In this document: one piece after another, positions 53,127 to 64,000 of the stretch | Numbering within the stretch: the stretch's first letter is position 1 | Layout of the letters: every line of letters starts with the position of its first letter | Source of the DNA: Candidatus Latescibacterota bacterium | Lineage (GTDB): Bacteria; Latescibacterota; UBA2968; UBA8231 | Direction of reading: 5' to 3' | Length of the DNA: 64,000 nt | Assembly (NCBI GenBank): GCA_965203175.1 | Contig: OZ241867.1 | Span: forward strand, 1,344,001 to 1,408,000 | Position numbers and translations under genes: made by a program | Notes under the pieces: generated by a model | What the model saw: only the letters and a program-made list of their open reading frames with translations | Told to the model about the DNA's origin: nothing | The model's database searches: none

Positions 53127-55571
53127 ATGGCTTTGAAAAAGTCCCAACTCTACTCCTCGCTGTGGCAAAGCTGCGACGAGTTACGTGGCGGCATGGACGC
53201 CTCGCAGTACAAGGACTACGTCCTGACGCTGCTGTTTATGAAGTACGTCTCGGACAAATACGCTGACGATCCGTACCCGCTCATTGAAGTTCCACCCGGC
53301 GGCAGCTTCGCGGATATGTCAAACCTCAAGGGCGACAAGGAGATCGGCGACAAGATCAACAAGATCATCGGTCAGCTCATCGAGGCCAATGACCAGCTCA
53401 AGGGCGTCATCGACCAAGCTGACTTCAACGACGAGAGCAAGCTCGGCACAGGCAAGGAGATGCAGGACCGACTCTCGAAGCTGGTCGCTATATTCGAGGG
53501 GCTCGACTTCCGCGCCAACCGGGCCGAGGGCGACGATCTGTTGGGCGATGCCTACGAATACCTGATGCGGCACTTTGCGACCGAGTCAGGGAAGAGCAAG
53601 GGGCAGTTCTATACGCCGGCCGAGGTCTCCCGCATTATGGCACAGGTGGTTGGGATCGGCTCGGGCACCCAACAGGATCAGACTATTTACGATCCGACTT
53701 GTGGCTCTGGCTCGCTCTTGCTCAAGGCTGCGGACGAAGCGCCGCACGGCATTACCGTTTACGGCCAGGAGATGGACAACGCCACCTATGCGCTGGCACG
53801 GATGAACATGATCCTGCATGGCCATGAGACCGCTGAACTTTGGCGCGGCAACACCTTGGCCGCTCCGTACTTCAAGAACCCGGACGACCGCCTTAAGACC
53901 TTTGACTTTGCCGTCGCTAATCCGCCTTTTTCCGCCAAGGCTTGGTCCAGCGGCCTCAATCCAGACCACGACGAGTACGGGCGCTTCGAATACGGCATCC
54001 CTCCGACGAAAAACGGTGACTACGCCTTCCTTTTACATTTAATTGCGTCGCTCAACAGCAAGGGCAAAGGCGCGATTATCCTGCCGCACGGCGTGCTGTT
54101 TCGCGGCAACAAGGAGGCGGACATCCGCAAAAAGCTCATCCGCCAGGGCTTCATCAAGGGCATCATCGGCCTGCCGGCCAATCTGTTCTACGGCACTGGC
54201 ATCCCCGCCTGTATCTTGGTTCTCGATAAAGAGAACGCCCACGCTCGTAGCGGTATCTTCATGATCGACGCGAGCAAGGGCTTTCTCAAGGACGGCAACA
54301 AGAATCGCCTGCGCGCACAGGACATCCACCAAATCGTCGATGTGTTCAACCGGCAGACTGAGTTGTCGCGCTATTCCCGCATGGTGCCGGTGGCTGAGAT
54401 CGCTAGTCCGGCTAACGACTACAATCTGAACATTCCGCGCTACATTGATTCCAGCGAATCGGAAGACCTGCACGACCTCGACGCGCATTTGCACGGCGGC
54501 ATTCCCGACCGCGATCTCGACGAGCTCGGAACCTATTGGGATGTCTTCCCTTCGTTGCGCCAAGCGTTGTTTGTCGGCAACGGACGGGCGGGCTACAGCG
54601 AGGCTCGCGTTGAGACGCCGCAGGTGAAGGCCGCCATTCTCGGGCATGGGGAGTTCAAGTCGTACGAGGCGCGGGTCGCGGTCGTTCTCGACGGTTGGTG
54701 CAAGACGCACGAGCCGGTTCTCAAGGGGCTGGAGATAGACGCCAATCCCAAGGACATCATCCACACTCTGGCGGAGGATCTGCTGGCGAGTTTTGCCGAC
54801 TTGCCGCTGCTTGATCCGTACGACGTGTATCAGCGGCTGATGGACTATTGGGACGAGGTGATGCAGGACGATGTGTATCTCATTACTGCGGACGGTTGGG
54901 AAGAGGCAGTCAAGCCGCGTGGGATCATTGAGGACAAAGAGAAGAAGATCAAGGAGACGCCGGACCTGACTGTCAAACGCAGGAAGTACAAGATGGACCT
55001 GATTCCTCCGGGGCTGATCGTCGCGCGTTATTTCGCTGATGAACAGGCCGCTGTCGAGGCGCTACAGGCCAAGCAGGAGGCCGCAGCCCGCGAACTGGAA
55101 GAGTTCGTCGAAGAGCACACTGGCGAGGAGGGCTTGCTGGAGGATGCGGTCAACGACAAGGACAAAGTCACCAAGGGCGGCGTGACGGAGCGGCTCAAGG
55201 CTATCCGGTACGAGCCGGAGAGCGACGAGGAACGCGATGCCCTCAAGCATTGTAAAAGTCTGATTGAGGGCGAGGCTAAGGCGGCTAAGGCCGTCAAGGA
55301 GGCCCAAGCCCGCTTGGATGAGCAGGTGCTGGCCCGCTACGGCGTGCTCACTGAAGCCGAGATCAAGACGCTGGTGGTTGAGGACAAGTGGTTTGCGAGC
55401 ATCCGGGGTGCTATCGAAGGTGAGGTGCAGCGGTTGACACAGCAGCTCGCCGGGCGGGTGAAGGAGTTAGAAGAGCGCTACGCCCGTCCGCTGCCGGAGT
55501 TGGAGCGGGAGGTGGAGGTGTTTGGTGATAAGGTCGAGGAGCACTTAAAGAGGATGGGGATTTCGCTATGA
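53127..55571 (+). CDS. hsdM: Type I restriction-modification methyltransferase subunit
   Basis: LWQSCDELRGGMDASQYKDY, GQFYTP, YDPTCGSGSLL, ANPPF, PHGVLFRG, YNLNIPRYI. Confidence 0.95.
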   Translation: MALKKSQLYSSLWQSCDELRGGMDASQYKDYVLTLLFMKYVSDKYADDPYPLIEVPPGGSFADMSNLKGDKEIGDKINKIIGQLIEANDQLKGVIDQADFNDESKLGTGKEMQDRLSKLVAIFEGLDFRANRAEGDDLLGDAYEYLMRHFATESGKSKGQFYTPAEVSRIMAQVVGIGSGTQQDQTIYDPTCGSGSLLLKAADEAPHGITVYGQEMDNATYALARMNMILHGHETAELWRGNTLAAPYFKNPDDRLKTFDFAVANPPFSAKAWSSGLNPDHDEYGRFEYGIPPTKNGDYAFLLHLIASLNSKGKGAIILPHGVLFRGNKEADIRKKLIRQGFIKGIIGLPANLFYGTGIPACILVLDKENAHARSGIFMIDASKGFLKDGNKNRLRAQDIHQIVDVFNRQTELSRYSRMVPVAEIASPANDYNLNIPRYIDSSESEDLHDLDAHLHGGIPDRDLDELGTYWDVFPSLRQALFVGNGRAGYSEARVETPQVKAAILGHGEFKSYEARVAVVLDGWCKTHEPVLKGLEIDANPKDIIHTLAEDLLASFADLPLLDPYDVYQRLMDYWDEVMQDDVYLITADGWEEAVKPRGIIEDKEKKIKETPDLTVKRRKYKMDLIPPGLIVARYFADEQAAVEALQAKQEAAARELEEFVEEHTGEEGLLEDAVNDKDKVTKGGVTERLKAIRYEPESDEERDALKHCKSLIEGEAKAAKAVKEAQARLDEQVLARYGVLTEAEIKTLVVEDKWFASIRGAIEGEVQRLTQQLAGRVKELEERYARPLPELEREVEVFGDKVEEHLKRMGISL

Positions 55572-56453: not shown

Positions 56454-56665
56454 AAGCGAATAGATTTATCTGATTCTAAAACAAGAAGTTACATCAAACA
56501 GAAGAGTGTTAAGTGGGAATTGGGAAACAGAAAAAATTGAAAGCGGAGGAAGGGTGAACGGCAATTGCGGGAACAGTGGATGAGCATCAAGTCAAAATGG
56601 ACGAGGTAATAAACGATAGTTATATTTTTGCACCAATAAATAATATGAAGGAGGACATCAACATC

Positions 56666-56902
56666 ATGCCAGACCGTTATGTAACGAAGCATCCAGAAGG
56701 GTGGTCAGTGAAAGCACCGGGTGCCGCACGCGCAAGCAGCGTTCATGGGACGCAGCGGGAGGCCGAGGCGGCGGCGAAACAGATCGTGGCTAATCTTGGC
56801 GGCGGTGAGGTTCGTATCCAAGGACGCGATGGCAAGTGGCGTGATTCGGACACGGTCCCGCCGGGTAACGACCCGAATCCGCCACGCGACAAGAAGCACT
56901 AA
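56666..56902 (+). CDS. DUF2188 family small protein
   Basis: GWSVK..GA.RAS....TQ.EA...A...GGEVRI.GRDG..R. Confidence 0.8.
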   Translation: MPDRYVTKHPEGWSVKAPGAARASSVHGTQREAEAAAKQIVANLGGGEVRIQGRDGKWRDSDTVPPGNDPNPPRDKKH

Positions 56903-56923: not shown

Positions 56924-57874
56924 ATGAGAATATTCATTTCATATTCGCACAAAGACCAAGCAGTACTGGAGCGGCTACATACCCATTTGGCTCCCCTTCA
57001 GTCTGAAGGGCTTATTGATACATGGTATGATCGCCAAATTCTGGCGGGTGGGAGGGTCGACGAGGAGATCGGCAAAGAACTTGAGTCCTGCGATCTCTTC
57101 CTGATGCTTGTCAGTCCTGATTTCCTAGCGTCTGACTATTGCGTCAATCGTGAAATGAGGCGAGCGCTTGAGCGCCATAGGGACGACGCGGCGCATGTTG
57201 TACCAATTATCGTCGAGCCCTGCGATTGGCTTTCTTCGCCACTAAGTGAACTCAAGGTCCTACCACTTGATGGGGAACCTATTAGCGAGTGGCCAAACCC
57301 AAACAACGCCTATCTCGATGTAGTCAGGGAACTTCGGCGTATTCTTGAAACTCGTAAGGCCGCTGTGCCTCCTATGGGACATGCTACGTTCTCCGAGGAG
57401 ACTAATGAAACGCGACCTGTGGCTTCCCGTTATAGGGTACAGCAAGACTTCGATGATATAGATCGTAGTGAGTTCCGAGAGACCGCGTTTGCGACTATCT
57501 GCGATTACTTCCAGCAGCAGATTGCCGAGATCAATACGGACAGCAAATTACGCGGGCGTTTTGTGCCCCGGGGGCCGAGTTCGTTCGGATGCACAATCGT
57601 CAATAGGGCACGTGAGTTGAACCGTGGTACGGCGCACATCACTGTACATCGCGGAGACGGTGCCCCTGGGCTTGGCGACATCTACTACTCGTTCTCGGAA
57701 AATGCCGCAGCCAATACTGCAAGTGGCATGCTCTACATTGAGTCGGACAATTACGAAATGTATCTCAGCAGTATGATGAACTTCGGCAGTGGGCGGGAAC
57801 GGCTCACTCCGGAAGAAGCGGCAGAGTGCTTGTGGGCTGATTTTATCGAGAAGGCAGGAGTTTCTTTGGGCTGA
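56924..57874 (+). CDS. TIR-domain protein with an unknown C-terminal domain
   Basis: IFISYSHKD, WYDRQILAG, LVSPDFLASDYC..REM (catalytic-position Glu), VVPII. Confidence 0.88.
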   Translation: MRIFISYSHKDQAVLERLHTHLAPLQSEGLIDTWYDRQILAGGRVDEEIGKELESCDLFLMLVSPDFLASDYCVNREMRRALERHRDDAAHVVPIIVEPCDWLSSPLSELKVLPLDGEPISEWPNPNNAYLDVVRELRRILETRKAAVPPMGHATFSEETNETRPVASRYRVQQDFDDIDRSEFRETAFATICDYFQQQIAEINTDSKLRGRFVPRGPSSFGCTIVNRARELNRGTAHITVHRGDGAPGLGDIYYSFSENAAANTASGMLYIESDNYEMYLSSMMNFGSGRERLTPEEAAECLWADFIEKAGVSLG

Positions 57875-58103: not shown

Positions 58104-59392
58104 ATGAATAGCGAGCAAGGGACAACGGGCAGCACCCTTGGAGGCGGACGCCGTGTGCCCGTGGAACCTGTTCCCGCCGGCTACAAGCGCACCGAAGTGG
58201 GCGTAATTCCGGAGGATTGGGAGCGTTCGAGCGTACATGCCATTGCCTCATCGACGCGCAACGCGATCGTTGGTGGTCCCTTTGGATCTGACCTCGTGTC
58301 CAAGGACTACGTGGCTCATGGCGTTCCGGTTATTCGTGGCCAGAATATGAGCGGCCAGTGGGTTTCGGGCAGTTTTGTTTTTGTTACGCCAACGAAAGCA
58401 AAATCACTCGAAGCGAATCTAGCGCATCCTGGAGACATTATCTTTACGCAACGAGGAACGCTTGGCCAAGTAAGCCTCGTTCCGGACAAACCCTTCAGCG
58501 CTTACTTGGTCTCCCAGAGCCAGATGAAGCTTTCGGTAAACCGCAAGGTGGCTGATCCGCTCTTCCTCTTCTATTTTTTTACAAGCTACGAACAGCAGAA
58601 ATCGATTCAGGGCAGGACGATTCAGACGGGAGTTCCGCATATTAATCTCGGAATTCTTCGTGAGATGCCCGTTCGACTTCCGCCATTAGCCGAGCAACGC
58701 GTCATCGCCGAGGCGTTGTCGGATGTGGATGGGTTGCTCACGGCGTTAGAGGCGCTGATCGCCAAGAAGCAGGCCGTCAAGCAGGCCGCCATGCGGCAAC
58801 TCCTCTCTGGCAAGACTCGTCTGCCGGGGTTTAGTGAGGCGTGGGAGACGAAGCGGATTGGCGACTTACTCTATTATGAACGACCAGATCGCTACATTGT
58901 GCAATGCACAGAGTACAGCGATTACGGCAATGTTCCAGTATTGACCGCAAACAAGTCGTTTGTTTTGGGCTACACCGACGAAGATTTCGGTATCTGTACT
59001 GATACTCCTGTTATCGTTTTTGACGATTTTACGACCGATTCAAGTATGCAACGTCTCCATTCAAAGTAAAGTCGTCAGCGATCAAGCTTCTCCGCGCCCG
59101 TCAGAATCAAGCACATCTTAGGTACGTTTTTGAACGTATGCAGTTGATTCGCTTCCCGTTGGGCGATCATAAGAGATACTATATATCGGATTATCAAAAC
59201 ATTGAGTTGGCCGTTCCCGGTTTCGGTGAACAACAGGCTCTTTCTTCAGTCCTCTCCGAAATGGACGCCGAGATCGCCACGCTGGAGCGACGCCGGGACA
59301 AGATTCGCGCCGTCAAGCAGGGCATGATGCAGCAGCTTCTCGTCGGTCGGGTGCGGCTGGTCGAACCAGACTTAGATCGTACGAGGAGTTAA
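58104..59392 (+). pseudogene. hsdS: Type I RM specificity subunit, frameshifted near 59042
   Basis: GYKRTEVGVIPEDW, PPLAEQRVIAEALSDVD, KQAAMRQLLSGKTRLPGF. After FDDFTTDS the expected KY...PFKVKSSAIKLL continues in another frame to KQGMMQQLL.GRVRL. Confidence 0.88.
59307..59350 (+). repeat. hsdS 3'-end direct repeat, left copy
   Basis: 39 of 44 nt match 63728-63771. Confidence 0.85.
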
Positions 59393-59468
59393 AGTCAGTC
59401 TCGCGAAAATGAGTCATCTTTACAGATCACACATGATGCTGTAAAAACAGACACTTGGAGGTGTGTTG

Positions 59469-60422
59469 ATGTCCAAGGACCTGAAGAGTCAGCAGGAGCA
59501 GGGTACCACCAGTATTAAGAACCGAGACTTTCCGAGCCTATACCAGAGTGCCGACAAAGCGTCACTTTCAGCACAACGACGTTATCTTTGTTTGCAGAAG
59601 AGCTATATCGGTTGTCTTATTTTGGGGAGCGTTGGTGCTGCCCTTGCGACGATAGTTCCGGTCGTAGCCGTCAAGTGGACTCACATTGTCTTGGCGATAG
59701 TTCTGGTAACTGGCGTCGTTCTCACTTGGGTATCCCGAGTACGTCGAGACGACAAGGTGTGGTTTGGCTGTCGCGCCATTGCTGAGTCCACAAAGACCGC
59801 TACATGGCGATTCATGATGAAGGCTGCACCTTTCAAAGATGACAGCATCGCTAGGCAGTCATTCATTGACCAGCTTCGACTAATACGAGAGGAGAGGCAT
59901 TTCAGTTCACACGATTTGGCGCAAAGCTTGGATGCAAACACTCAGTCTATTAGCGATTTCATGGATAATGTGCGACAGAAGCCCTTGAATAAACAGCGGA
60001 ACCTATATCTTGAGTCGAGACTTCGCGATCAAAAGGCTTGGTATTCAAATAAAGCCAAGTTCAATTCAAAGAAGGAATCTTGTTGGTTCTGGGTGGTTTT
60101 GGCACTACATGTGGTCGCCATTGCTTTTGCAATTATTCAGGCTGGTTCAGGTGGCTTACCGGTAAACATGGTTCCATTTTTGATGACCTGCGCTGCTTCT
60201 GCTATCGCATGGAGCCATATGAAGCGCTACGGCGAGTTAGCTCAGACCTACTCACTCTCTGCACAGGAGCTGAGAGACCAAGAAGCGATTGCCTCGGATA
60301 TAACGGAAGAGGCTGACTTCCTCGCACTTGTGGAGCAAGTCGAGGAGACCATTTCTCGTGAACATACCATGTGGTGTGCGCGCCGGAATGTGATAATCAG
60401 ACCAACCGACAAGGGAAACTAA
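59469..60422 (+). CDS. Tandem SLATT/DUF4231 four-TM effector
   Basis: GGAGG RBS; two TM hairpins; W...RAIAESTKT..WRFMM; Y...RLRDQKAWY..KA; ELAQTY; VEETISREHTMW. Confidence 0.82.
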   Translation: MSKDLKSQQEQGTTSIKNRDFPSLYQSADKASLSAQRRYLCLQKSYIGCLILGSVGAALATIVPVVAVKWTHIVLAIVLVTGVVLTWVSRVRRDDKVWFGCRAIAESTKTATWRFMMKAAPFKDDSIARQSFIDQLRLIREERHFSSHDLAQSLDANTQSISDFMDNVRQKPLNKQRNLYLESRLRDQKAWYSNKAKFNSKKESCWFWVVLALHVVAIAFAIIQAGSGGLPVNMVPFLMTCAASAIAWSHMKRYGELAQTYSLSAQELRDQEAIASDITEEADFLALVEQVEETISREHTMWCARRNVIIRPTDKGN

Positions 60423-60423
60423 C

Positions 60424-60825
60424 ATGGCTAAAAGGAAGATATTCGTGAGTTATGACTACGACAACGATAGGTATTACAAGAATCTACTCTTGGCATGGGA
60501 TAAGAACCGCGAATTCGATTTCGGCTTTAGTGATCAGTCCGCTGATGTGTCCATCCAGAGCACTAACGTAGTCGCCATCAAACGCGCGATTTCAGCCAAG
60601 ATCAATGCCTCTACTTACTTCCTGTGCCTTGTTGGCGAGAAGACCAGCAAGAGCTATTGGGTTGCATGGGAGATCGACAAGGCTAAGGAATTAAGAAAAA
60701 AGCTTGTTGCTGTGAAGATTTCGAATAGGAATGTGACTCCAAACGGACTCTTGAATGCCGGGGCATCGTGGGCTATGTCGTTCTCATTCGACGCCATCAA
60801 AGACGCCATCGAAGGCGCTTATTAA
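60424..60825 (+). CDS. ThsB-like stand-alone TIR protein (MTH538/DUF1863)
   Basis: KIFVSYDYDND, IKRAISAKI, LCLVGEKTSKSYWVAWEIDKA (catalytic-position Glu). Confidence 0.85.
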   Translation: MAKRKIFVSYDYDNDRYYKNLLLAWDKNREFDFGFSDQSADVSIQSTNVVAIKRAISAKINASTYFLCLVGEKTSKSYWVAWEIDKAKELRKKLVAVKISNRNVTPNGLLNAGASWAMSFSFDAIKDAIEGAY

Positions 60826-60844
60826 TGGTGATGAAACTGGAAAC

Positions 60845-61837
60845 GTGACTAAGAAAATAGCCATGGCAATAGATCGAAGCAGGAACCTATACATCGCGCA
60901 GACAGCCCTTCCTATACCATGCTTTTTTCCATCGGTTTCGAGCGTTAAGACAAACCTGATGCCCGTTGATTATGTAGAGCTTCTCGTTGCAGCCGGTCAT
61001 TCGCTCTTTCTGGTATCCGCCTATGACATTGCCCATTGCACCGATGATCAGCGCCCGCGTATGGATGCCGCGCTGACGAAAGGTAAAGAACACGATGCCG
61101 TGATCCTTATGGACAGCGGGAATTACGAAAGCTTTTGGAAAGACGACAAAGACTGGCAACCTGACAGGTTCCATGAAATTGCTGGTTCTAGCCATCATCA
61201 TCTCTGTTTCTGCTACGATAACCAGCAGCCGCCCAGCACCTCAGAGTCAATTGCCGAAGACGTAGTGGCCAGTGTTATCCGAGATCAGAAACACGCCCTC
61301 GAAACCGTAGCTCCGATAGTCCATGGGGACACAGCATTGCTATCAGATGCGGCCCGTAGAACGGCGGAGCAACTTTACCCCCTACTCTTGGCCGTCCCGG
61401 AACGTGAGCTTGGAGAAGGCATTATCGAGCGAACCCGAACAGTAAGGAAAATCCGAGAGGCGCTTGATACGCTAGAGGTATATTGCCCTCTTCATCTGCT
61501 CGGCACGGGGAATCCGCTTTCGATTATTGCTTACGCCTTAGCTGGAGCCGATAGCTTCGATGGTCTGGAATGGTGTCAGACCGTTGTCGACCACCAAACA
61601 GGTAGGCTGTTACATTTTCAACAATGGGACTTGATCCGCGATCAGACAGAATGGGGTCGATGCCCTGTACTACCGTATGTCCAATCGGTCTTGATGCACA
61701 ATCTAGATTTCTATCGCGAGTTTATGAAAAAGTTACACGAAGCAATACATCTCGAAGACACTGAAACTTTCATTCAACAGTACGTAACTAACGAACAGGC
61801 AGATCTTCTACTCCGGGCCAGCGAAGGAAGTGAGTAA
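60845..61837 (+). CDS. tRNA-guanine transglycosylase (TGT)-like protein, Cap10-like; start at 60845 or 60863
   Basis: ILMDSGNYES, PIVHG, PLHLLGTGNP, AGADSFDG, HNL; no CxCxxC zinc motif. Confidence 0.78.
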   Translation: MTKKIAMAIDRSRNLYIAQTALPIPCFFPSVSSVKTNLMPVDYVELLVAAGHSLFLVSAYDIAHCTDDQRPRMDAALTKGKEHDAVILMDSGNYESFWKDDKDWQPDRFHEIAGSSHHHLCFCYDNQQPPSTSESIAEDVVASVIRDQKHALETVAPIVHGDTALLSDAARRTAEQLYPLLLAVPERELGEGIIERTRTVRKIREALDTLEVYCPLHLLGTGNPLSIIAYALAGADSFDGLEWCQTVVDHQTGRLLHFQQWDLIRDQTEWGRCPVLPYVQSVLMHNLDFYREFMKKLHEAIHLEDTETFIQQYVTNEQADLLLRASEGSE

Positions 61838-62534
61838 CGTGACAATGATTCGCTTTTCTCTTTCAGCTATCGAACATGCGATCCGGGATGTGTACAGCGT
61901 ACTTGACGAGTGTACTTCAGTCCCATGGAAGGAAAGTAGCGAAGACGATCTATGGCGAGAGCTTGTATTTTGTATCCTAGGTAGCCGAGTGAGGTTTGAA
62001 ACTGTCCACGCAGCGGTTGAAAGAATGGACGGTATGTGTTTGCTTTCTCGTCCACGACGAAACACACAGTTCGATCAATATGAAGAGGACACGATGACGG
62101 CCCTTTCTATGGGCTATCCATTCTATCGCGTCAGGGCTAATCAGATTCGCCGGGCAGCAGAATACCTATACAACTACTCACGGGGGTCAATTGGGGAGTT
62201 ACTGAATAGCGCTAGTGATGCTCACAGCGCGCGACGCCTTCTGACGGCTGAGGTAGTGGGTTTGGGACCCAAGCAAGCAAGCCTATTCCTCCGGAACATC
62301 GGTTATGCAAAGTCCATCGCGGTCTTAGACGTACATATTTTGACATATTTGAGTTGGATCGGTCTTGCTGAATCTTCGCTCAAATCGGTTCCGACATTAA
62401 GCAAGTACGAAGCACTGGAAGAATCTTTTATCCAACATGCCTATTCATTAGGATTCTCACCCGATCAATTCGATCTTGCGGTGTGGATTGTAATGAAAGT
62501 GGCAAAGGAGGAATCAAACGCATGGGGATCGTGA
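61830..62534 (+). CDS. 8-oxoguanine N-glycosylase/DNA lyase-like HhH protein (OGG2-type, Cap11-like)
   Basis: LWRELVFCILGS, GLGPKQASLFLRNIGY, IAVLDVHIL, YEALEE.F, FDLAVW. Confidence 0.85.
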   Translation: MSNVTMIRFSLSAIEHAIRDVYSVLDECTSVPWKESSEDDLWRELVFCILGSRVRFETVHAAVERMDGMCLLSRPRRNTQFDQYEEDTMTALSMGYPFYRVRANQIRRAAEYLYNYSRGSIGELLNSASDAHSARRLLTAEVVGLGPKQASLFLRNIGYAKSIAVLDVHILTYLSWIGLAESSLKSVPTLSKYEALEESFIQHAYSLGFSPDQFDLAVWIVMKVAKEESNAWGS

Positions 62535-63118
62535 CTTTGGTATCTGGAGGATTCGATTCAACTCTTATGAGTCTTATGGCTCATGAGGAAGGGATCGCAC
62601 TATTCCCTCTCTTTATCGATTACGGGCAACTCGGAGTAAACAAGGAATGGTCAGCGTGTCAGCGACTTCACAAACAATTCGGTTTGCCACCGGTGACCTA
62701 TATGGATTTGTCTGGTTTTGGAAAAACAATCCCGAGCGGACTTACAGATAGCAGTTTACGCATCAACGAAGATGCCTTCTTGCCAGGTCGAAATCTTCTT
62801 TTTGTGCTAGCAGGAGCGGCTCATGCCTGCCAGACTCAAGCTAGTAGCGTCGCGCTTGGTCTACTCAATCCCGCCGACCACCTTTTTCCAGATCAGACCA
62901 AGGGGTTTGTAGAAGAGTGCGAAAGGATTATCGAGATGGCAATGGGCCGGAGGATTTCTGTTCTTATCCCACTGATCGAGTTCTCGAAGAGAGATATTAT
63001 GGTGATGGCTCGTGATCGGGGGATAAAGCATACCTATTCATGTCATGCAGGTGGGGACGAACCTTGCGGAGTGTGCATAGCATGCATTGAAATTATTAAT
63101 GCAAAGGAAAGGAGGTAG
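62522..63118 (+). CDS. QueC-like PP-loop ATPase (Cap9-like)
   Basis: LVSGGFDST, IDYGQ, FLPGRNLLF, FPDQ, TYSC-x6-PCGVCIAC zinc site. Confidence 0.9.
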   Translation: MGIVTLVSGGFDSTLMSLMAHEEGIALFPLFIDYGQLGVNKEWSACQRLHKQFGLPPVTYMDLSGFGKTIPSGLTDSSLRINEDAFLPGRNLLFVLAGAAHACQTQASSVALGLLNPADHLFPDQTKGFVEECERIIEMAMGRRISVLIPLIEFSKRDIMVMARDRGIKHTYSCHAGGDEPCGVCIACIEIINAKERR

Positions 63119-63120
63119 CC

Positions 63121-63618
63121 ATGGGTGGCGGACGCAGTAGTCGCGGTTTAACCCCAGACGAATTCAGGAGTGCTGAACAACGTGCCAAAAAATCTCTGAA
63201 GGAAGGCGATGGCAAGCACAATGTCTTTATCAGCTTCTCCTCGGATGATCTCGATGAAGTTAACCTGTTACGTGGTCAGGCTAAGAACGAAAACAGCAAC
63301 ATTGAGTTCAACGACCGGTCACTGAAAAAGCCGTTCGACAGTAAGAAAGCCGACTATATAAAACGAGGCATTCGGGACCGTATTCGTCAATCCTCCGTTA
63401 CTGTCGTGTATGTATCGGACAAAACCGCCGATAGTAAATGGGTGGACTGGGAAATACGAGAGAGTCTTGTCATGGGGAAAGGTGTCGTCGCCATGCACAA
63501 GGGCGACACCCCACCCAGACGTCTCCCAAAGGCTATCACCGACAACAATATTCCGGTTGTACCGTGGAACCAAGAACAGTTGGCAAAAGCCATTGAGACT
63601 CAGTTCGAGAACCGATGA
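63121..63618 (+). CDS. ThsB-like TIR protein with a Gly-rich N-terminal extension (MGGGRSSRG)
   Basis: AGGAGG RBS; NVFISF, YIKRGIRDRIRQSSVTVV, SKWVDWEIRES, KGVVAM, VPWN. Confidence 0.85.
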   Translation: MGGGRSSRGLTPDEFRSAEQRAKKSLKEGDGKHNVFISFSSDDLDEVNLLRGQAKNENSNIEFNDRSLKKPFDSKKADYIKRGIRDRIRQSSVTVVYVSDKTADSKWVDWEIRESLVMGKGVVAMHKGDTPPRRLPKAITDNNIPVVPWNQEQLAKAIETQFENR

Positions 63619-63727
63619 AACAAACTAACAATTGGTTACAAACGGACGGTTCTAGATGCTGCTGGACTAAGTAGTAGAGTAAGAATCGTAGAAATCGGGC
63701 TAGAGTGACATTTATCGAGACACACCT

Positions 63728-63771
63728 GCGCCGTCAAGCTGATCATGATGCAGCAGCTTCTCGTAGGTAGG
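63728..63771 (+). repeat. hsdS 3'-end direct repeat, right (decayed) copy
   Basis: GCGCCGTCAAGC.....ATGATGCAGCAGCTTCTCGT.GGT.GG is shared with 59307-59350. Confidence 0.85.
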
Positions 63772-63820
63772 GAGAGGTCTGCTCCAACCCGAGGCTCTAA
63801 CTAAAGAAGAATAAGGCGAC

Positions 63821-64000
63821 ATGAGCGAGAGCTAGAACATCGAATGGAAAGAGACGTGGCGGGACGAATACCTAAAATGGGTCTGCGGCTTCGCCAATGC
63901 TCAGGGCGGCGTACTGGAAATCGGCAAGAATGACCGGGGTGAGGTGGTCGGAGTGAAGGACGTTCTCCGACTGCTCGAAGAAATTCCCAATAAGGCCCAG
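63821..64000 (+). pseudogene. AlbA_2 (Schlafen-like) domain gene with TAG at codon 5; runs off the window
   Basis: MSES*NIEWKETWRDEYLKWVCGFANAQGGVLEIG.ND.GEVVGV. Confidence 0.75.

Follow-up and report, generated by a model that had tools for sequence, protein, structure and literature searches.

A SLATT-TIR operon with Cap9-, Cap10- and Cap11-like genes in a Candidatus Latescibacterota genome: a candidate Thoeris-type system with a type IV CBASS ancillary module

The operon and its gene products

The stretch of DNA analysed here, referred to as the window, comprises 64,000 nucleotides of contig OZ241867.1 (positions 1,344,001 to 1,408,000, forward strand) from a Candidatus Latescibacterota bacterium, and its open reading frame (ORF) list contains, at 59463-63618 (+), six co-oriented, tightly packed and intact genes which form an operon of about 4.2 kb. 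The order of the genes is double SLATT protein, ThsB-type TIR protein (TIRa), Cap10-like TGT, Cap11-like OGG, Cap9-like QueC and, in last place, another ThsB-type TIR protein (TIRb). A first-pass annotation of the window had read the operon as a hybrid of Thoeris and of type IV CBASS (cyclic oligonucleotide-based anti-phage signalling system), in which TIR proteins take the place of the cyclase and the SLATT protein kills the cell. This reading fits all of the sequence tests that were run, its functional part being drawn from homology. The feature is real and the annotated reading is largely correct; the operon is a member of a kind which has already been described from the analysis of genomes.

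Domain calls were obtained from Pfam, PADLOC and NCBIfam scans of the six proteins, and every assignment in the annotated order of SLATT, TIR, TGT-like, OGG-like, QueC-like and TIR is upheld by them. Start codons were picked by comparison with orthologues, with alternatives at 60755/60863 for the TGT-like gene and at 62483/62522 for the QueC-like gene (Table 1); the start given at first pass for the operon, 59469, is an in-frame ATG two codons past the GTG at 59463. From the first junction to the last there are gaps of 1 nt and 37 nt, then overlaps of 8 nt and 13 nt, and finally a gap of 2 nt, which bears out the description of the genes as overlapping or nearly abutting. The operon is also richer in AT than the core genes, as had been claimed, with a GC content of 0.486 compared to 0.582 for window positions 1-53000 and 0.586 for hsdM. 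Because the spacing is tight and the low GC content is common to all of the genes, the sequence suggests that the six genes form a single transcription unit; a consensus scan for promoters and terminators over 59000-64000, which returned 0 sites of either kind against shuffle means of 5.3 and 4.2, is uninformative on this point.

Table 1. Coordinates of the operon genes, of the TIRb extension and of neighbouring genes in the window
Feature	Position	Strand	Description
SLATT effector (predicted)	59463..60422	+	319 aa, GTG start; in-frame ATG at 59469; SLATT_3 + SLATT_1 fusion
TIRa	60424..60825	+	ThsB-type TIR, 133 aa, no N-terminal extension
Cap10-like TGT-family protein	60863..61837	+	324 aa from ATG at 60863
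Cap11-like OGG-family helix-hairpin-helix (HhH) glycosylase	61830..62534	+	234 aa from GTG; orthologues suggest start near 61845
Cap9-like QueC-family ATP-dependent ligase	62522..63118	+	198 aa from ATG at 62522
TIRb	63121..63618	+	ThsB-type TIR, 165 aa, N-terminal tail
TIRb N-terminal extension	63121..63219	+	Gly-rich tail MGGGRSSRGL, then predicted amphipathic helix, residues 12-27
hsdM	53127..55571		Type I restriction-modification locus
DUF2188 gene	56576..56902	+	
TIR gene	56924..57874		316 aa
hsdS, first part	58104..59069		In one frame
hsdS, second part	59138..59392		In another frame

The SLATT protein matches both SLATT_3 and SLATT_1, in Pfam (8.7e-32 and 6.2e-32) as well as in NCBIfam (1e-37 and 5.9e-31). 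The earlier description of this protein as having four transmembrane segments stands for three of them, which are recovered as hydrophobic segments in a Kyte-Doolittle analysis (19-residue window, mean at least 1.6), but for the fourth the two-transmembrane SLATT_1 model is the sole indication. From its sequence the protein is predicted to be a membrane-disrupting effector of the ThsH type.

The TGT-like protein matches the Pfam TGT family (3.6e-10) and the PADLOC TGT model PDLC00913 (8.1e-25, model positions 7-315 of 326), and its top match in the PDB is Cap10 (9ntn_A), both with the single sequence (1.1e-7) and with a profile (1.8e-9). Residues D83-S84 of the TGT-like protein (numbered on window positions 60866-61837) align with D73-S74 of Cap10, H210 with H226 and D232 with D248, and none of the four varies among the 18 sequences compared. 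In Cap10, according to Wassarman et al. (bioRxiv 10.1101/2025.04.06.647259), D73, S74, D122 and K154 read the nucleobase, and H226 and D248 form the catalytic pair.

The OGG-like protein matches Pfam Ogg-HhH (2.4e-27) and, at a score under that model's cut-off, the NCBIfam N-glycosylase/DNA lyase (3.8e-29); its top PDB matches are archaeal and Thermotoga Ogg proteins (3.6e-12). It keeps the motif G-x-G-x-K...L-D-x-H, which we take to supply the catalytic Lys and Asp, as in the OGG family. The QueC-like protein matches Pfam QueC (1.4e-33) and the PADLOC QueC model PDLC00911 (9.1e-28), and its top PDB match is Cap9 (9nto_B, 1.5e-12), just above canonical QueC (2pg3, 9.9e-12). It keeps SGGFDS, the PGRN loop and an F-x-D at the position of Cap9 Y115/D117, the aromatic-x-Asp position which stacks on the 7-amido-7-deazaguanine (NDG), and the spacing of its Cys cluster, C-x7-C-x2-C-x2-C, equals that of Cap9 in the alignment; the two hallmarks of the Cap9 of type IV CBASS, the SxGxDS loop and the zinc-binding Cys cluster, are thus both present. 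PADLOC (2023) would detect only ThsB, TGT and QueC in this operon and would therefore report no complete system.

Two TIR proteins and the acceptor tail

The first-pass annotation had both TIR proteins replacing the cyclase. A TIR protein does stand in the place of the cyclase, but the two are unequal: judged from their sequences they are non-equivalent, with a Gly-rich N-terminal tail on TIRb only and with TIRa facultative across related loci. TIRa matches ThsB_TIR in Pfam (1.2e-19) and the PADLOC ThsB model PDLC00429 (4.3e-17), and it is tail-less, beginning with MAKRKIFVSYDY, straight at the first TIR strand. TIRb matches ThsB_TIR as well (8.9e-25), and both the sequence search and the fold search of the PDB rank the Bacillus cereus TIR 8fz9 first; ThsB structures also match, and the folds of nucleoside 2-deoxyribosyltransferase and DNPH1 appear at lower ranks of the fold search. 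The motif S-x-W-V-x-W-E-I is invariant in both paralogues, including in TIRa the Glu and in TIRb the W-E-I, and this Glu is presumably the catalytic residue of the TIR proteins.

The ATG of TIRb is preceded by GGAGG at a distance of 6 nt and opens an extension of about 33 residues which starts with MGGG, the first TIR strand following at residue 34. In an AlphaFold2 model with a mean predicted local distance difference test (pLDDT) score of 77, the tail is disordered (pLDDT below 50 at residues 1-10), a helix spans residues 12-27 and a strand spans residues 34-38. An alignment of TIRb orthologues has Gly2 invariant (17/17); Gly3 is present in 16 of the 17 sequences, and as many begin with MGG. 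The consensus drawn from these orthologues reads MGGGGGGGRGLTPDEL..LEQRAKKSLK, with the N-terminal consensus MGGGGGGGRGL. In type IV CBASS, Cap9 puts NDG on Gly2 of the cyclase, all of the cyclases are stated to have an N-terminal extension starting M(G/S)G(G/S)GG, and the helix alpha1 which follows this tail docks on Cap9 and Cap10 (bioRxiv 10.1101/2025.04.06.647259). In the present operon such an extension is found, but on TIRb rather than on a cyclase, and TIRb is accordingly the protein whose sequence is predicted to combine the roles of deazaguanylation acceptor and signal synthase.

Tails of this sort are not confined to the immediate orthologues. A TIRb profile compared with 1.84 billion representatives found 1310 relatives at E of at most 0.001, and among the best 150 of these 1310 a first strand could be recognised in 91, of which 50 have an extension of 20-60 residues. 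An MG[GS] start is present in 29 of the 50 extended relatives as opposed to 0 of 33 without an extension, again among the best 150; tailed TIR proteins are therefore a sizeable family and no oddity of one locus. Two of the proteins, P0002 and P0050, resemble fusions or read-through gene calls: the former has a QueC C-terminus followed by a tailed TIR, and the latter has a Cap10-like N-terminus and a TIR at its end. Their sequences hint at fused Cap-TIR forms.

The families of the ancillary proteins also allow the operon to be read as a nucleic-acid deazaguanine cassette similar to Dpd, in which the QueC-like protein would make preQ0 or ADG, the TGT-like protein would insert it into DNA or tRNA, the OGG-like protein would excise it and the TIR-like proteins would process nucleosides. 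The QueC, TGT and OGG families do act on nucleobases or nucleic acids, and the two nucleoside-processing folds at lower rank in the TIRb search would suit such a scheme, but the best matches among solved structures are Cap9 and Cap10, which modify proteins, rather than tRNA or DNA enzymes, and the NCBIfam equivalog scores lie far under their cut-offs (27 versus 47.6 for tRNA-TGT, 109 versus 150 for QueC). The C-terminal CxCxxC zinc motif of canonical TGT is not visible in the sequence of the TGT-like protein. Dpd clusters combine a DpdA-type TGT with DpdB/DpdC and further Dpd genes; the six ORFs here include no ParB-like DpdB or other Dpd gene, all of them belonging to other families and the TGT-like protein being nearest to Cap10. 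Moreover, two canonical QueC genes are already present in the genome, and the conserved Gly tail of TIRb would be without a role. A Dpd-like function of the operon is on these grounds very improbable.

Recurrence, proposed mechanism and relation to known systems

Recurrence of the gene order in unrelated genomes, without a CD-NTase (the cyclase of CBASS), had been put forward at first pass as a check, and the order does recur. A search for related loci yielded 19 (Cap10 identity 57-83%) with the order SLATT-(TIRa)-Cap10-Cap11-Cap9-TIRb; their gene content was read from a tblastn search with the six proteins, ORF reconstruction and follow-up scans. The metagenome-assembled genomes concerned are labelled Latescibacterota, Binatia, Nitrospirales, Betaproteobacteria, Acidobacteria, Phycisphaerales, Methylomirabilota, Hydrogenedentales and others. 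OGG is found in 17 of the 19 loci (missing from L009 and L018), QueC in 18 and TIRb in 17; the contig of L010 ends before TIRb, L018 is decayed, and the L008 copy of TIRb is frameshifted. A SLATT-type gene lies directly 5' of the remainder of the operon in 18/19 loci, in the long double form in 15 and in a short form in 3 (145-aa DUF4231/SLATT_1), the exception being L010, a 2.7 kb contig with an unrelated gene upstream. A different effector was considered for L008, L011 and L015 and was rejected, as the 145-aa upstream gene in these loci is DUF4231/SLATT_1.

TIRa is much less constant, being intact in 7 of the 19 loci, start-less in one (L018), a pseudogene or remnant in three (L001, L002, L007) and absent from eight, so that by its sequence record it is dispensable (absent, decayed or start-less in 12/19). 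From these locus counts the conserved core therefore consists of SLATT, Cap10, Cap11, Cap9 and the tailed TIR. Additional TIR genes lie immediately 5' of SLATT in L013, L014 and L004; as far as the sequences of these loci tell, extra tail-less TIR genes come and go in the way that ThsB genes do in Thoeris loci. In L009, L012, L016, L017 and L019, TIRb is the sole TIR detected in the flanks examined, and SLATT still adjoins Cap10. The idea that hidden TIR genes occur in these “single-TIR” flanks was rejected, because two custom profiles gave TIR proteins only at L001, L004, L008, L013 and L014. The loci also form a decay series: in L018 (4591-6953) OGG, QueC and TIRb are gone, and what is left is SLATT, TIRa without a start codon and TGT with a frameshift; the TIRb of L008 (4463-4970) is frameshifted, and TIRa has in-frame stops in L002 (5554-5955) and in L007 (5569-5964).

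These counts bear on the possibility that the operon consists of two systems placed side by side, namely a type VII Thoeris made up of SLATT and TIRa, and a separate Cap10-Cap11-Cap9-TIRb unit in which the modified TIRb would be an NAD+-depleting effector that sends no signal to SLATT. SLATT and TIRa are 1 nt apart, as in the published two-gene type VII layout, and L013 and L014 have a different TIR gene immediately 5' of SLATT; in addition, Yirmiya et al. (bioRxiv 10.64898/2025.12.03.692087) caution that a TIR in an unverified configuration might be an NAD+-depleting effector. SLATT, however, is found directly 5' of Cap10 in 18/19 loci despite the frequent loss or decay of TIRa. The five loci in which TIRb is the sole TIR detected near SLATT, together with the close gene spacing and common low GC content that suggest one transcription unit, also count against two systems. 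Two independent systems are thus an unlikely explanation.

The content of the genome outside the operon agrees with a cyclase-free system. SMODS/CD-NTase (PF18144) has 0 matches in the entire 6.58 Mb genome (completeness 93%), and none of the six ORFs is a CD-NTase; in the 19 loci, CD-NTase is absent from the 25 commonest of the 79 Pfam families matched by 100 flanking ORFs; SIR2_2 has three genome matches, all outside the window; QueD lies about 3 Mb from the operon. The statement at first pass that the window is without CD-NTase, ThsA, QueD, QueE and FolE genes is accordingly upheld for SMODS, SIR2_2 and QueD, but QueE, FolE, macro and SLOG were not searched for. The two canonical QueC genes of the genome (205 and 196 bits) and QueD make a supply of deazaguanine substrate plausible.

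The reading which we consider likely is that the operon encodes a Thoeris-type abortive-infection system of type VII layout, in which a TIR protein is controlled by the ancillary module of type IV CBASS. The Cap9/Cap10 module would act on the TIRb protein and not on nucleic acid, and the annotated role of the module, which “licenses or senses”, can be sharpened by homology to the addition of NDG by Cap9 to Gly2 of TIRb and the holding of the resulting tail by Cap10. 7-carboxy-7-deazaguanine would be drawn from the host queuosine pathway; after removal of the Met, Cap9 would activate the base with ATP and couple it to the alpha-amine of Gly2, producing an N-terminal NDG. The nucleobase pocket of Cap10 would then bind the NDG tail and keep TIRb in a primed, inactive complex, and on infection the Asp/His pair of Cap10 may move the NDG-linked TIRb onto some target. 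TIRb, once freed or activated, would turn NAD+ into a signal of the cyclic ADP-ribose (cADPR) type, which would be bound by SLATT and would cause its oligomerisation, membrane damage and the death of the cell before phage maturation. Cap11 probably reverses the transfer, damping the system, and the tail-less TIRa would be an optional extra ThsB sensor which feeds the same effector, as in Thoeris loci with multiple ThsB genes.

A bolder version of the transfer step, which we hold to be doubtful, is that the Asp/His pair of Cap10 grafts TIRb, via the free N9 of its deazaguanine, onto a ribose, which could belong to a nucleic acid or a nucleotide of either the phage or the host; TIR proteins tethered in this way would cluster and start NAD+ cyclisation, TIRa would co-assemble with them, and Cap11 would cut them off. 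If this were true, one licensed TIR would recruit unlicensed ones, and conjugation of a protein to a nucleic acid would trigger TIR signalling. If the grafting step were common to type IV CBASS, it would therefore point to one target for both systems.

Several observations weigh against a TIR protein controlled by the Cap module. The defence function, the NDG modification, the nature of the signal molecule and the activation of SLATT have all been carried over from homologous systems. The likeness to solved Cap10 is local, since HMMER is confident for residues 175-239 only and the piece containing D-S is sub-threshold, and counterparts of Cap10 D122 and K154 could not be placed from the local pieces, which a PDB profile search did not lengthen. 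No relevant PADLOC model was matched by the SLATT and OGG-like proteins at E up to 10. The tail of TIRb in the window, MGGGRSSRGL, has lost three Gly through point substitutions at residues 5-7 relative to the consensus; because MGGGRS agrees with the CBASS motif at 4 of 6 positions and departs from the orthologue consensus, the window copy may be a poorer substrate for deazaguanylation. In L009 (4297-7448) the TIRb tail is MGNKSNDY, with no Gly run, and OGG is missing; Gly2, Cap9 and Cap10 are kept. The genes found for the substrate supply are QueC and QueD, and the maker of the base is QueE. Since the tally of families in the flanks of the 19 loci covers the 25 commonest, a lone CD-NTase in one flank would escape.

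A prediction of the complex between Cap10 and TIRb, made with our own alignments, supports the proposal weakly: the score is 0.56, compared to 0.02 for the best control. The mark used for such scores is passed by 58 of 80 solved complexes and by 2 of 110 mismatched pairs, counts that are only rough for predictions from our own alignments, and a score of at most 0.60 occurs in just 7 of the 80 solved complexes and in both of the passing mismatches. At least 46% of contacts are common to the prediction runs, and the partner pLDDT is at least 72.

The layout itself is not new. Yirmiya et al. (December 2025) classify TIR plus SLATT as type VII Thoeris, experimentally verified and using the canonical cADPR signal, and they note that some Thoeris operons carry cap9, cap10 and cap11 (Fig. 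6G and Fig. S10B), for which the available part of the preprint gives AlphaFold 3 modelling only, with interface predicted template modelling scores for ThsB of 0.79 with Cap10 and 0.62 with Cap9. The claim at first pass of a candidate new anti-phage system, which had allowed that surveys may have noted the layout, must therefore be withdrawn. No experiment on a Thoeris operon with cap9, cap10 and cap11 was found in the available part of that preprint or in the literature searched, and a full-text literature search found only this preprint discussing Cap9/Cap10 with Thoeris (PMC13376578 has Thoeris only among its references). The operon shares with those of Fig. 6G, as far as they are described there, a ThsB-type TIR, an effector and cap9/10/11 in one operon with no CD-NTase, as well as a TIR predicted to bind Cap9 and Cap10 in the manner of the type IV CBASS cyclase. 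To that description the present analysis adds the conserved Gly tail on only one of the TIR proteins, the facultative second TIR, the SLATT gene in 18/19 loci and the nesting in a type I restriction-modification (R-M) locus.

Comparison with the individual known systems leads to the same placement. With type IV CBASS, which consists of a CD-NTase, an effector, Cap9 and Cap10 with or without Cap11, the operon has in common the Cap9-like QueC, the Cap10-like TGT, the Cap11-like OGG and a signalling enzyme with a Gly-rich tail followed by a helix, but it has a TIR instead of a CD-NTase; it therefore falls outside CBASS as defined, and its signal would be NAD-derived and not a cyclic oligonucleotide. 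As in type VII Thoeris, genes for ThsB-type TIR proteins adjoin one for a SLATT membrane protein, and the setting is that of a defence island. The verified type VII systems are described as having two genes, whereas the operon adds three ancillary genes and a second TIR; the agreement is at the level of domains, and the TIR proteins are at most putative members of the cADPR-producing clade, a further point against the proposal. Networks of SMODS, SLOG, SLATT and TIR proteins were reportedly first surveyed by Burroughs et al. in 2015 in Nucleic Acids Research. QatABCD also has a QueC-family enzyme proposed to join a deazaguanine to the N-terminal Gly of a partner protein, QatC being described, in the sources available in part, as deazaguanylating the N-terminal Gly of QatB; it differs from the present operon, which has no QatA ATPase, QatB or QatD TatD nuclease and whose QueC-like protein, at 198 aa and with the canonical motifs kept, resembles the short Cap9 and not the remodelled QatC.

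The deazaguanylation of proteins came to light as late as 2025, and according to bioRxiv 10.1101/2025.04.06.647259 its target further downstream in type IV CBASS has yet to be found. If Cap9, Cap10 and Cap11 control a TIR protein here, then the module would be a licensing device which can be fitted to unrelated signal synthases, much like the ubiquitin-like Cap2/Cap3 module, and if it is common to the CBASS and TIR contexts, then the two could be compared in order to find a shared target. The family of loci is well suited to testing, because it is compact, spans many phyla at 57-83% identity and varies naturally: TIRa may be present or missing, SLATT may be long or short, and one copy lacks both OGG and the Gly run. 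In practical terms the present analysis predicts the TIR that is modified and the residue that carries the modification, while the layout is to be credited to the preprint.

The surrounding restriction-modification island

The operon is inserted in a type I R-M locus, with hsdS on one side and hsdR on the other, and the genes follow one another in the order hsdM, a helix-turn-helix gene, a DUF2188 gene, the gene for a 316-aa TIR, hsdS, the operon, an AlbA_2/HATPase_c_4 regulator, hsdR and a YgjP-like peptidase. Both of the adjoining genes carry lesions: hsdS is frameshifted (Table 1), and in the AlbA_2/HATPase_c_4 gene 3' of the operon the reading frame is broken by a TAG shortly after the ATG, within a few codons (region 63800-63940). 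The annotated picture of six open frames amid decayed neighbours is thus confirmed, with the proviso that the lesions of the neighbours could be real decay or could be assembly errors.

The lesions are what would be expected if the window copy of the operon were a non-functional relic in a decaying island, and the loss of three Gly from the TIRb tail and the existence of decayed relatives (the L018 remnant, the frameshifted TIRb of L008, the TIRa pseudogenes of L002 and L007) are in keeping with this. Set against it, all six frames are open and of full length, every catalytic motif that was tested is intact, the conjugation site Gly2 is retained, and the lesions next to the operon could have arisen in assembly; a relic is quite unlikely.

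R-M orthologues (HsdM 68-86% and HsdR 80-82% identity, compared with window 53127-55571 and, beyond the window end, with L025 2445-6294) flank the operon in L001, L003, L009, L012 and L019, whose labels name different phyla. From this the composite island appears to be passed on whole, also between phyla. Among the families matched by the 100 ORFs flanking the 19 loci are TIR_2 (8 ORFs), components of type I R-M systems and further domains of the defence type.

Two further features of the island are separate from the operon. The DUF2188 gene (1.9e-18) lies directly 5' of the gene for the 316-aa TIR, which is likewise on the + strand and matches the PADLOC ThsB model PDLC00420 (6.5e-67), and the pair resembles the predicted “DUF2188 effector” Thoeris outlined by Yirmiya et al. 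(bioRxiv 10.64898/2025.12.03.692087); L001 has an orthologue of this TIR (72% identity) in the same place before hsdS, with no detectable DUF2188. Just past the end of the window, at L025 944-2416, is the gene for a 490-aa HATPase_c_4 protein with a C-terminal internal tandem duplication, made up of two near-identical copies of a T-Q-E-rich linker and a winged helix (two HTH_24 stretches).

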